Assembly (NCBI RefSeq): GCF_048403405.1
Contig: NZ_CP183135.1
DNA: 64,000 nucleotides
Origin: Escherichia coli
GTDB lineage: Bacteria > Pseudomonadota > Gammaproteobacteria > Enterobacterales > Enterobacteriaceae
Direction: 5' to 3' (one strand)
Numbering within the stretch: position 1 is the stretch's first letter; every line of letters starts with the position of its first letter. The position numbers were made by a program. Positions 21,001-27,000 of this stretch are shown here, one piece after another.

Positions 21001-24000
21001 ACACTTATCCGCGAAATAAAAGGGAGCAGCCACTGATGATATCTCTCCCTGCAGGTTCGCGTATCTGGCTGGTTGCAGGTATCACCGATATGCGAAATGG
21101 CTTTAACGGCCTGGCATCAAAAGTTCAGAACGTCCTGAAGGATGACCCGTTCTCCGGACACCTGTTCATCTTCCGCGGACGCCGGGGTGACCAGATAAAA
21201 GTGTTGTGGGCTGACAGTGACGGACTGTGCCTCTTCACCAAACGCCTGGAGCGGGGCCGCTTCGTCTGGCCAGTCACCCGTGACGGCAAGGTGCACCTTA
21301 CTCCGGCTCAGTTATCCATGCTTCTTGAAGGTATCAACTGGAAGCACCCGAAACGAACGGAACGCGCTGGAATCCGCATATAACCCGTTGTAAAGTGAGG
21401 ATATGGACACCTCACTTGCTCATGAGAACGCCCGCCTGCGGGCACTGTTGCAGACGCAACAGGACACCATCCGCCAGATGGCTGAATACAACCGCCTGCT
21501 CTCACAGCGGGTGGCGGCTTATGCTTCCGAAATCAACCGGCTGAAGGCGCTGGTTGCGAAACTGCAACGTATGCAGTTCGGTAAAAGCTCAGAAAAACTT
21601 CGTGCAAAAACCGAACGGCAGATACAGGAAGCACAGGAGCGAATCAGCGCACTTCAGGAAGAAATGGCGGAAACGCTGGGTGAGCAATATGACCCGGTAC
21701 TGCCATCCGCCCTGCGCCAGTCTTCAGCCCGTAAACCGTTACCGGCCTCACTTCCCCGTGAAAACCGGGTTATCCGGCCGGAAGAGGAATGCTGTCCTGC
21801 CTGTGGTGGTGAACTCAGTTCTCTGGGATGTGATGTGTCAGAGCAACTGGAGCTTATCAGCAGCGCCTTTAAGGTTATCGAAACACAACGTCCGAAACAG
21901 GCCTGTTGCCGGTGCGACCATATCGTGCAGGCACCAGTACCTTCAAAACCCATTGCACGCAGTTATGCCGGAGCGGGGCTTCTGGCCCATGTTGTCACCG
22001 GGAAATATGCAGACCATCTGCCGTTATACCGCCAGTCAGAAATATACCGTCGTCAGGGAGTGGAGCTGAGCCGTGCCACACTGGGGCGCTGGACAGGTGC
22101 TGTTGCTGAACTGCTGGAGCCGCTGTATGACGTCCTGCGCCAGTATGTGCTGATGCCCGGTAAAGTCCATGCTGATGATATCCCCGTCCCGGTCCAGGAG
22201 CCGGGCAGCGGTAAAACCCGGACAGCCCGGCTGTGGGTCTACGTCCGTGATGACCGTAACGCCGGTTCACAGATGCCCCCGGCGGTCTGGTTCGCGTACA
22301 GTCCGGACCGGAAAGGTATCCATCCACAAAATTACCTGGCCGGTTACAGCGGTGTGCTTCAGGCCGATGCTTACGGTGGTTACCGGGCGTTATACGAATC
22401 CGGCAGAATAACGGAAGCCGCGTGTATGGCTCATGCCCGGAGAAAAATCCACGATGTGCATGCAAGAGCGCCCACCTACATCACCACGGAAGCCCTGCAG
22501 CGTATCGGTGAACTGTATGCCATCGAGGCAGAGGTCCGGGGCTGTTCAGCAGAACAGCGTCTGGCGGCAAGAAAAGCCAGAGCCGCGCCACTGATGCAGT
22601 CACTGTATGACTGGATACAGCAACAGATGAAAACACTGTCGCGTCACTCAGATACGGCAAAAGCGTTCGCATACCTGCTGAAACAGTGGGATGCACTGAA
22701 CGTGTACTGCAGTAATGGCTGGGTGGAAATCGACAACAACATCGCAGAGAACGCCTTACGGGGAGTGGCCGTAGGCCGGAAAAACTGGATGTTCGCGGGT
22801 TCCGACAGCGGTGGTGAACATGCGGCGGTGTTGTACTCGCTGATCGGCACATGCCGTCTGAACAATGTGGAGCCAGAAAAGTGGCTGCGTTACGTCATTG
22901 AACATATCCAGGACTGGCCGGCAAACCGGGTACGCGATCTGTTGCCCTGGAAAGTTGATCTGAGCTCTCAGTAAATATCAATACGGTTCTGATGAGTCGC
23001 TTACGTCCCAGTCGTCCCAGCCGTGCCAGGTGCTGCCACAGATTCAGGTTATGCCGCTCAATTCGCTGCGTATATCGCTTGCTGATTACGTGCAGCTTTC
23101 CCTTCAGGCGGGATTCATACAGCGGCCAGCCATCCGTCATCCATATCACCACGTCAAAGGGTGACAGCAGGCTCATAAGACGCCCCAGCGTCGCCATAGT
23201 GCGTTCACCGAATACGTGCGCAACAACCGTCTTCCGGAGACTGTCATACGCGTAAAACAGCCAGCGCTGGCGCGATTTAGCCCCGACATAGCCCCACTGT
23301 TCGTCCATTTCCGCGCAGACGATGACGTCACTGCCCGGCTGTATGCGCGAGGTTACCGACTGCGGCCTGAGTTTTTTAAGTGACGTAAAATCGTGTTGAG
23401 GCCAACGCCCATAATGCGGGCTGTTGCCCGGCATCCAACGCCATTCATGGCCATATCAATGATTTTCTGGTGCGTACCGGGTTGAGAAGCGGTGTAAGTG
23501 AACTGCAGTTGCCATGTTTTACGGCAGTGAGAGCAGAGATAGCGCTGATGTCCGGCGGTGCTTTTGCCGTTACGCACCACCCCGTCAGTAGCTGAACAGG
23601 AGGGACAGCTGATAGAAACAGAAGCCACTGGAGCACCTCAAAAACACCATCATACACTAAATCAGTAAGTTGGCAGCATCACCGGGTGGCCTGATTTAGG
23701 TGGTGGATCAGCAGTATCACAGTTTGCAATGATGGCCAGAAAATTTGGTAAACAACTTATTGTCGCTGTAAGTGAAAAGGATGCCATCAAATTAAAAGAC
23801 AATTTTGATATTATTGGGATGTTGTCATATGGTAAAGAAAATTTTATTGCCATGAGTCATACGAAAAGCGAGTTAACTGGAGGGAAACGTCGGTACCGGA
23901 TTAAAAATTGATATAAATAAAAAGCATACTTATTGGCTGGAGTTTCGGTAGTAAAAAGCGGGAAATGAAGGTAATAGTCAGCAACAGGGAATGTGGTATT

Positions 24001-27000
24001 ATCGCGGCGGGTGTCTGAGCCTTTCTGGTTCAGGCAAGACGCAGGTACCAGAAATGCGAAGACCCCACTCGTTAATCCATTAACTCGTGAGGTCTGCATG
24101 AAGTACCTTAACACTACTGATTGTAGCCTCTTCCTTGCAGGGAGGTCAAAGTTTATGACGAAATATGCCCTTATCGGGTTGCTCGCCGTGTGCGCCACGG
24201 TGTTGTGTTTTTCACTGATATTCAGGGAACGGTTATGTGAACTGAATATTCACAGGGGAAATACAGTGGTGCAGGTAACTCTGGCCTACGAAGCACGGAA
24301 GTAAGCTGCCGGGCGGGGACGGAAGTCCCCGCTTTCCGGAAGTGTGAGGTATTTCAGGGGCAGACACCCGACATGCCAGAAACAGCCGGTCCCGCCCGGG
24401 GCCGGCATCCTGGTTAAGGCATTTCCTGCTTTTCAGTCATTTCATTATCAAAATCACATTAAACGGTTGTAATCAGACATGATTTGTGCGCCAACACCGA
24501 TCATCGTCACAACTTTCAAGTCGCTGATTTCAAAAAACTGTAGTATCCTCTGCGAAACGATCTCTGTTTGATTATTGAGGAGGCGAGATGTCGCAGACAG
24601 AAAATGCAGTGACTTCCTCATCGGGAAAAAAACGACCTTACAGAAGGGGTAATCCTGTTCCTGCGAGAGAACGACAAAAAGCGTCTCTTGCAAGAAGGAG
24701 TGCCACTCATAAAGCGTTTCATGCCGTCATTCAGCTTCGACTGAAAGAAAAGTTAAGTGAGCTTGCTGATGAAGACGGGATCACTCAGGCACAGATGCTT
24801 GAGTGGCTGATAGAGTCAGAGGTTAAGCGCAGAAAATCTTTGTGAGTATTTGCGTTTCTTGCTGTTTCAGTGATGAGATGTTAGATTGCTGATCGTTTTA
24901 AGGAATTTTGTGGCTGGCCACGCCGTAAGGTGGCAGGGAACTGGTTCTGATGTGGATTTACAGGAGCCAGAAAAGCAAAAACCCCGATAATCTTCACCAG
25001 GTTTGGCGACTAAGAGAAGATTACCGGGGCCCACTTAAACCGTATAGCCAACAATTCAGCTATGCGGGGAGTATAGTTATATGCCCGGAAAAGTTCAAGA
25101 CTTCTTTCTGTGCTCACTCCTTCTGCGCATTGTAAGCGTAGGATGGTGTGACTGATCTTCAACAAACGTATTACCGCCAGGTAAAGAACCCGAATCCGGT
25201 GTTTACACCCCGTGAAGGTGCAGGAACGCTGAAGTTCTGCGAAAAACTGATGGAAAAGGCGGTGGGCTTCACCTCCCGTTTTGATTGCGCTATTCATGTG
25301 GCGCATGCCCGTTCGAAGGGACTGCGTCGGCGCATGCCACCGGTGCTGCGTCGACGGGCTATTGATGCGCTGCTGCAGGGGCTGTGTTTCCACTATGACC
25401 CGCTGGCCAACCGTGTCCAGTGCTCCATCACCACGCTGGCCATTGAGTGCGGGCTGGCGACGGAGTCTGCTGCCGGAACACTCTCCATCACCCGTGCCAC
25501 CCGTGCCCTGACGTTCCTGTCAGAGCTGGGGCTGATTAGCTACCAGACGGAATATGACCCGCTTATTGGCTGCAACATTCCGACCGATATCTCGTTATAA
25601 GGGCCATCTTCGTACCCTTCTTTCGACGCAATAGCTTTCAGTCTTGCGCTGGCACACGCTGAACTACCCGCATTACCATTACTACAGGCAGCAATAACCT
25701 CCTTATCACTGAATATCTTTTTCAAGCAATGCATCATATTTCTGCTGTGCCTTTTCACGCTCTGCCGGATCTTTACTGTTTTTAATCGTCTGTTTTGCTA
25801 TCTCAAGTTCTGTCTTTTCAGACACGCTCAGGTAGTTATTCTCAACAGCATTCTTCCCGCTCTGTGTGCTCCCACTGCAGCTGATGCGGTGCTGTTTCCG
25901 GTTAGACCGCCGGTCAGCCCTGCTGACACGGTTGCCAGCGTACTTATCGTCTGCTTCTGCTCTTCACTGAGGTCAGACAGCTTCACTCCCGGATACAGCA
26001 TTCCGATCGCTCTGGCTGCCAGCTCTCCTGTTGCTGCGCCTGCTGCACCAGCAGCAACATTATTACTCTGCATTGCTGCTACTGCACCGCCCAGAATGGC
26101 GTGAGCAATGGCCTTTACTGCCGGGTCTTTTTCTGTTGATTTCAGCAGGTATGCCAGTTCCGGAGCCGAAGCTCCCGCCAGTACTGCACCAACGTCACCA
26201 CCTGCCAGCTATGGCTGGAGATGGTGGATGTTACCGATAATCAAGAAGCCTTAGATATAAGGCAATGTTTTATCTTTCTTTCATACGAAAACCAGTGCTG
26301 CCATACTAGCCCTTTTCCTGTGACATCTAAGCGAGCTCATGTTTATCGGGAAGGGTGTTAAATCATTGTTAATCATACACAGGTAATTATGCAGCGGTTA
26401 TGCATAACTTCATTTCGAGCGTGTGATAACGCCAACACAACCACCAGAATTATAAAATAAAATCACAAAACCTGAGAACATATCACATTTTATCACATTA
26501 ATAATTTTTCTTTATGATTTCATAACTATTTACAGCCTTTTATTAAGCCAAAAAAAGTTAAATTGCAATTATTTCATAATTATTCACGCTACAGTTTTTT
26601 TACTTTTAAAATCATATAAATATATAATCACCTTAAAACAGCAAACTCCACAAAATAATAACAAATAGAGATATTTCCACCCAAATAATGACTATCTATT
26701 CATGAGCTGACATTATGAAATTAATCATTATTTAATGCAAGTAACACAAATTAAAACAAATACCTTAATATCCATTATTGTGTGAATCTCATCACAATAA
26801 TGTTTATTTTACCGCCTAGTATGAACCACGAAATCAATTGAAGTTAGCCGCCATGAAATTAAATACACAACATGGCGCATACCTTTTTATTCTAAAAAAA
26901 TTAAAGGAATAATTATGGAAAAACATTACGTCGGTTCTGAAATTGGTCAATTGCGTAGTGTTATGCTGCACCGCCCAAATTTAAGTCTGAAACGTTTGAC

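Follow-up and report, generated by a model that had tools for sequence, protein, structure and literature searches.

What lies between the insertion sequence IS1 and the srnB-type toxin gene on an Escherichia coli contig (NZ_CP183135.1, assembly GCF_048403405.1), and does the insertion disturb the toxin locus? The question concerns a short interval in a 64,000-nucleotide (nt) stretch of that contig, referred to here as the window. The original prediction, drawn up from the window alone, had left this interval unassigned, as 470 base pairs (bp) starting at 23683. The gap is real, and both of its limits can be read directly. The IS1 inverted-repeat end (GGTGATGCTGCCAACT, minus strand) terminates at 23683, the plus strand up to that position being the reverse complement of the left end of IS1 (…AGTTGGCAGCATCACC), and the toxin ATG stands at 24155. 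IS1 therefore lies immediately upstream, as had been proposed, and the exact extent is 23684-24154, or 471 bp.

Very probably, this AT-rich interval (35-39% G+C) consists of two unrelated pieces, namely a dead gene fragment (23684-23911) and an intact control region of the srnB/SrnC type known from plasmid F (23975-24154). The reading is built on sequence identities, a breakpoint, an RNA-family match, promoter-like sites and predicted folds, all observed in the window itself. Between the stump and the srnB promoter lies an AT-rich spacer without assigned strand (23912-23974). F lacks this spacer, some lineages retain it in part, and consensus and Rfam scans found neither a terminator-like signal nor an RNA family in it. 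A permissive Rfam scan of 22500-26500 likewise placed no RNA family within 23684-24008. The interval is ordinary, and it is already annotated in hundreds of public plasmids.

The toxin module corresponds to srnB of plasmid F

The right-hand piece was compared with F (NC_002483, toxin coding sequence 2926-3075). Over 621 bp, positions 23980-24600 of the window and 2751-3371 of F align without a gap and differ at 16 sites; only four of these (24070, 24141, 24196 and 24241) lie within the predicted mRNA. The module occupies the same place as in F, adjoining copB (repA2) of the RepFII/RepFIC replicon, and the alignment runs on into repA2. The toxin coding sequence (24155-24304, plus strand) specifies 49 amino acids identical to those of F and belongs to the Hok family (Pfam PF01848, 36 bits against a cut-off of 22), while the NCBIfam HokA and Hok matches fall below their own cut-offs. 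The same protein, WP_001312851.1, is named 'Hok/Gef family protein' by the Prokaryotic Genome Annotation Pipeline (PGAP) in plasmids identical to the window over the 471 bp or over 20000-27000.

Upstream of 23980 the likeness to F ends: F carries unrelated sequence with a different minus-strand open reading frame (ORF), whereas the window carries the stump of a 154-amino-acid gene. An alignment of eight plasmids gives the same picture: to the left of about 23937-23980, F and the Klebsiella and Salmonella plasmids have unrelated flanks, and from the -10 hexamer on the sequence hardly varies. This pattern places the start of the module's control elements at the -35 hexamer. The literature describes srnB-srnC of F as a hok homologue of the same arrangement that functions in killing (PMC4147584).

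Predicted control elements, mRNA and antisense RNA

The original prediction had expected the promoters of a hok-like mRNA and of its antisense RNA within the interval, and promoter-like sites, the leader match and the folds agree with that expectation. A consensus scan predicts the srnB mRNA promoter at 23975-24002 on the plus strand, with -35 TAGTCA, a 16-bp spacer and a TG-extended -10 TATTAT. The site stops 6 nt short of 24009, where both the Rfam leader match and the pairing of the 5′ and 3′ ends begin, and its -10 hexamer and the sequence downstream are invariant in seven of the eight aligned plasmids, F included. From 24009 a full-length srnB mRNA of about 398 nt (24009-24406, plus strand) is predicted, on the basis of the Rfam match, the fold and the near-identity to F. 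The one strong Rfam hit in the interval is to the hok/sok leader family RF01794; it spans the whole model, at 24009-24165 on the plus strand, and its 93.3 bits exceed the gathering score of 59.

The predicted mRNA folds as a hok-family transcript would. Positions 24009-24017 pair with 24361-24369 in both the minimum-free-energy and the centroid fold (z = -6.97), forming a closure of the tac/fbi type described for hok-family mRNAs (PMC9841398), and a terminal hairpin at 24385-24406 forms the 3′ end. Both end-pairing elements are invariant in seven of the eight plasmids, so that there is no covariation to count for this pairing. A leader frame, srnB′ (the analogue of mok), runs in frame into srnB (24099-24304, plus strand) from an ATG at 24099 preceded by a GAGG Shine-Dalgarno motif at 24089-24092.

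On the opposite strand, the consensus scan predicts a promoter for SrnC at 24149-24120, with -35 TTGACC, an 18-bp spacer and -10 TACAAT, matching the consensus at 10 of 12 positions. This site is conserved across the aligned plasmids and is stronger than the sense site. The putative SrnC antisense RNA, whose ends are deduced, would span about 64 nt (24113-24050, minus strand). The fold of the surrounding minus-strand segment (24040-24114) has a free energy of -31.5 kcal/mol (z = -5.58). In this model the srnB′ start codon is covered by a single-stranded 5′ tail and the srnB′ Shine-Dalgarno motif by a long hairpin (24094-24061), and the RNA ends in a U-rich tail, so that GAGG and ATG of the leader frame both fall within the predicted antisense RNA. 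Position 24070, one of those differing from F, maps to an internal loop of the hairpin.

RF01794 itself calls for some care. Although named 'sok antitoxin', in the window it matches the sense leader strand of the toxin mRNA as far as the toxin start codon, whereas the true antisense RNA is on the opposite strand, inside the match. Pipelines that rely on RF01794 will therefore assign 'sok' to the wrong strand and overstate its length.

Transcription, RNA processing and killing at the window locus can be proposed from the literature on F and R1 (PMC4147584, PMC9841398). In such a scheme, the weak sense promoter would yield a stable mRNA of about 398 nt, kept closed by the pairing of its ends. 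Slow trimming of the 3′ end would make the leader frame translatable from its ATG at 24099, and the coupled 49-amino-acid membrane toxin would then be translated. Meanwhile the strong promoter on the other strand would supply a short, unstable antisense RNA covering the ribosome-binding site and start codon of the leader, which would block translation and trigger cleavage by RNase III. Plasmid-free cells would lose the antisense RNA first and be killed. The toxicity of SrnB, delayed by SrnC, has been demonstrated (PMC12390103), and toxicity, antisense control and post-segregational killing are expected at the window locus by virtue of its four-mismatch identity to F srnB.

The locus shares with described hok/sok systems (PMC9841398, PMC4147584) the coupled leader and toxin frames, a predicted antisense RNA with its own promoter inside the leader, the tac/fbi pairing and the RF01794 match. 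It differs from the described hok/sok system in that the family member is srnB and that leader and toxin share a reading frame. A further comparison is offered by hok copies of the pEC743_1 type (NZ_CP015070), which occupy the same place beside repA2 and, as in the window, have an IS66-family element upstream. Their homology begins only at about window position 24036, however, the promoter and the first 27 nt or so of the mRNA having been replaced; unlike that of the window, this rearrangement reaches the control elements. In this group of IncF plasmids, the hok-type locus (NZ_CP015070, 315-835) lies downstream of ISEc23 (IS66 family), lacks the sense promoter and the tac element, and has a shorter toxin ORF of 135 bp. 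Such copies may be inactive.

The 60-amino-acid frame is the tail of a truncated gene

The left-hand piece contains the 60-amino-acid frame (23729-23911) to which the original prediction had drawn attention. The frame exists, and it is indeed without a recognizable family, having no Pfam or NCBIfam match; its standing as an independent gene does not hold up. Translated from the junction, the plus strand has a frame open right up to the edge of IS1 (GWPDLGGGSAVSQFAMMARKFG…GGKRRYRIKN, followed by the stop codon), giving 76 codons, stop included (23684-23911). These are the last 76 codons of a conserved hypothetical gene of 149-154 amino acids. Full-length genes of other plasmids match the stump from end to end at 94-100% DNA identity, so that the frame is genuine coding sequence and did not arise as an ORF by chance. 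Among complete E. coli genomes, 632 records matched 23684-23990, nearly all of them plasmids.

In uninterrupted plasmids, the stump sequence forms the 3′ part of a 'hypothetical protein' gene of 146-150 codons, as in pF374-3 (WP_032289469.1, 150 codons) and FDAARGOS_144 (WP_000872609.1, 146 codons), within the gene order traX-finO-hypothetical-nuc-hha-DUF2726-hypothetical-hok-repA2. In a three-way alignment, IS1 breaks this parent gene at codon 79. Full-length homology with an intact start is accordingly lacking, and residues 79-154 alone remain of, for example, WP_032289469.1. In p4_1_1.1 (NZ_CP023845) and AR_0014 unitig_1 (NZ_CP024860), both of which match the 471 bp at 100% and share the IS1 junction, the PGAP entry for the stump reads 'hypothetical protein; incomplete; missing N-terminus'. 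As part of the two-piece reading, the stump is very probably a promoterless dead fragment without a start of its own, and the 60-amino-acid ORF is the part of it that follows an internal ATG.

The parent protein has no sequence match in Pfam, NCBIfam, PADLOC or the PDB and nothing significant in PHROGs. Its family comprises 61 relatives among 5.8 billion proteins, all from Enterobacteriaceae, with identities down to 58% and no Pfam domain in any of them. An AlphaFold2 model (predicted local distance difference test 73, predicted template modeling score 0.70) represents the protein as a single alpha/beta sandwich. Three assignments were considered and set aside. An FtsZ/tubulin-like nucleotide-binding loop was suggested by the motif GWPDLGGGSAVSQFA, but its GGG is not conserved in the family, where GTK, GAK, GRE and GEG variants occur, and the idea also lacks a Pfam, NCBIfam or PDB sequence match. 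Weak fold similarity pointed to a P-loop nucleoside triphosphatase or ATPase, for which the Walker A motif GxxxxGK[ST] is missing. A defense or phage family received nothing from PADLOC and nothing significant from PHROGs.

Alternative readings of the stump and of the insertion

Could the 60-amino-acid frame nevertheless be a functional small gene, expressing a C-terminal sub-domain of the parent from the internal ATG? The stump has kept an open frame, is 100% identical across hundreds of plasmids and holds most of the invariant residues of the family (W81, D83, G85, Q92, F93 and the LIVAV motif). The identity among plasmids, however, reflects recent clonal spread and not selection. ATG 23729 has no Shine-Dalgarno motif ahead of it and no promoter-like site upstream, the predicted single sandwich would be left without its first three strands, and PGAP treats the stump as a pseudogene. 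A functional small gene is thus hardly credible. The original prediction had also raised the possibility that the IS1 insertion affects transcription of the toxin locus. An effect on srnB expression might arise from a promoter at the end of IS1, either outward or hybrid, from the loss of read-through from the nuc-hha-DUF2726-hypothetical genes, or from altered silencing of the AT-rich spacer by nucleoid proteins. The low G+C content of the interval, a TTGGCA hexamer within the IS1 end (23670-23675), the absence of a terminator-like site from 23684 to the srnB promoter and the co-orientation of the deleted upstream genes with srnB in intact plasmids all speak for such an effect. Yet the consensus scan found no plus-strand promoter-like site across the junction, and TTGGCA has no usable -10, the hexamers 16-18 bp farther on matching TATAAT at only two of six positions. 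The IS1 genes, represented by an insA-like ORF on the minus strand (23353-23628), and the inward promoter-like site of the element (23676-23649, minus strand) are directed away from srnB. F srnB works with wholly different DNA upstream of its -35 hexamer (PMC4147584), and the stable presence of the junction in 256 plasmids argues that it is at least tolerated. Altered srnB expression through IS1 is therefore quite unlikely. The end of IS1 lies 291 bp upstream of the sense -35 hexamer, outside the srnB control elements, and the locus matches canonical F srnB, ungapped from 23980. This is the situation that the original prediction had named as refuting its proposal, and as far as can be judged at the sequence level, an IS1 effect is refuted.

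Some observations weigh against the two-piece reading with its intact, F-type control region. Transcript ends and promoter use at the srnB locus are predictions, and the sense -35 hexamer is poor (TAGTCA), unlike that of F (TATTAA). Position 24141 is G here and A in F, so that the leader codon specifies glycine instead of glutamate; this G, common to hundreds of plasmids, falls in the spacer of the predicted antisense promoter and strengthens the srnB Shine-Dalgarno motif. No terminator-like signal stands between the stump and the srnB promoter, so that transcripts coming in from the left would run on into srnB. Uninterrupted plasmids are built in the same way, with co-oriented genes upstream of srnB and no terminator. 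It is highly unlikely that the IS1-linked deletion measurably changed srnB/SrnC expression, through lost read-through or spacer silencing, and so aided the success of the lineage, or, separately, that the 149-154-amino-acid protein is a functional partner whose loss matters. That protein is always encoded just upstream of this hok-type locus in F-like plasmids, and nothing found points to either possibility.

Origin and distribution of the junction

The IS1 of the window is itself interrupted. Its distal 106 bp, with the right inverted-repeat end, occupy 20200-20305 (minus strand) and match the IS1 of p4_1_1.1 exactly. ISCro1, an IS66-family element, follows at 20306-23004 (plus strand), with ORFs starting at 20359 and 21036 and a third at 21403-22974, named tnpA, tnpB and tnpC after the PGAP annotation of NZ_CP024860. 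The proximal part, aligned to annotated IS1, comprises insA, the start of insB and the left inverted-repeat end (23005-23683, minus strand). An 8-bp target duplication, GTCCCAGT, surrounds ISCro1 at 20298-20305 and 23005-23012. IS1 retains both of its ends (20200 and 23683). ISCro1 splits insB, and removal of ISCro1 with one copy of the duplication leaves an IS1 of 777 bp. In p4_1_1.1, the same IS1 lacks ISCro1, carries a 4-bp deletion and is annotated as frameshifted.

IS1 itself is not flanked by a direct target duplication of about 9 bp, the flanks being CTTTTCATG on the left and GGGTGGCCT on the right. The outer left flank, which ends at 20199, consists of the first 14 or so codons of the thermonuclease gene nuc, as matched to pF374-3, and in that intact plasmid the two flanks are about 1.7 kilobases (kb) apart. 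The missing duplication and the separated flanks indicate an adjacent deletion associated with IS1, or IS1-IS1 recombination, in place of a simple insertion. The F-like plasmid thus carries an IS1 in its leading region, between finO and repA2, and the loss of about 1.7 kb beside that element very probably took away most of nuc, the whole of hha and DUF2726, and 237 bp from the 5′ end of the hypothetical gene. ISCro1 entered IS1 later, leaving its clean 8-bp duplication.

The exact IS1 junction occurs in 256 PLSDB plasmids, counted with a 120-bp probe covered to at least 80%. The 471 bp match 2,715 plasmid records, 637 of which cover at least 80% of the query; among the matches listed, the remaining records hold only the right-hand part with the hok module, from about 23937 at the earliest. 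In p4_1_1.1, the 471 bp are 100% identical and the junction agrees base for base, with no ISCro1 in the IS1. AR_0014 unitig_1 carries the 471 bp and the whole of 20000-27000, ISCro1 included, at 100% identity. The 7-kb arrangement of ISCro1, IS1, stump, hok and repA2 is present at about 100% identity in at least 208 records, with E. coli from humans, dogs and sewage among the sources.

The neighboring replicon and downstream genes

On the far side of the module, the FII initiator gene repA1 (25148-25600) is truncated after about 148 of 285 codons, with 95% identity to intact RepA up to the break. Next to it are the CopA antisense RNA (24973-25063, minus strand, Rfam score 102.8 bits) and copB/repA2 (24588-24845). 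With repA1 truncated, CopA, copB/repA2 and the srnB module are attached to a replicon that is probably non-functional. The identical plasmid NZ_CP024860 is typed as IncFIA/IncFIB only. Directly past the repA1 break, 25540-26073 (minus strand) holds fragments of a toxin gene of the contact-dependent-inhibition type, one ORF having a PT-VENN pre-toxin domain (PF04829, E = 9e-12) and another matching DUF6862. According to the annotation of the identical plasmid, the arginine deiminase operon (arcA, arcC and argF) then follows from about 26915.

Implications

The finding matters little in itself. It removes a false lead, since the 60-amino-acid frame is a pseudogene stump and the srnB module beside the FII replicon is intact and canonical. 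For annotation, the toxin–antitoxin locus of the window can probably be regarded as functionally equivalent to F srnB/SrnC. A few hundred clinical E. coli plasmids share the IS1/ISCro1 scar, which is a useful marker of their lineage.

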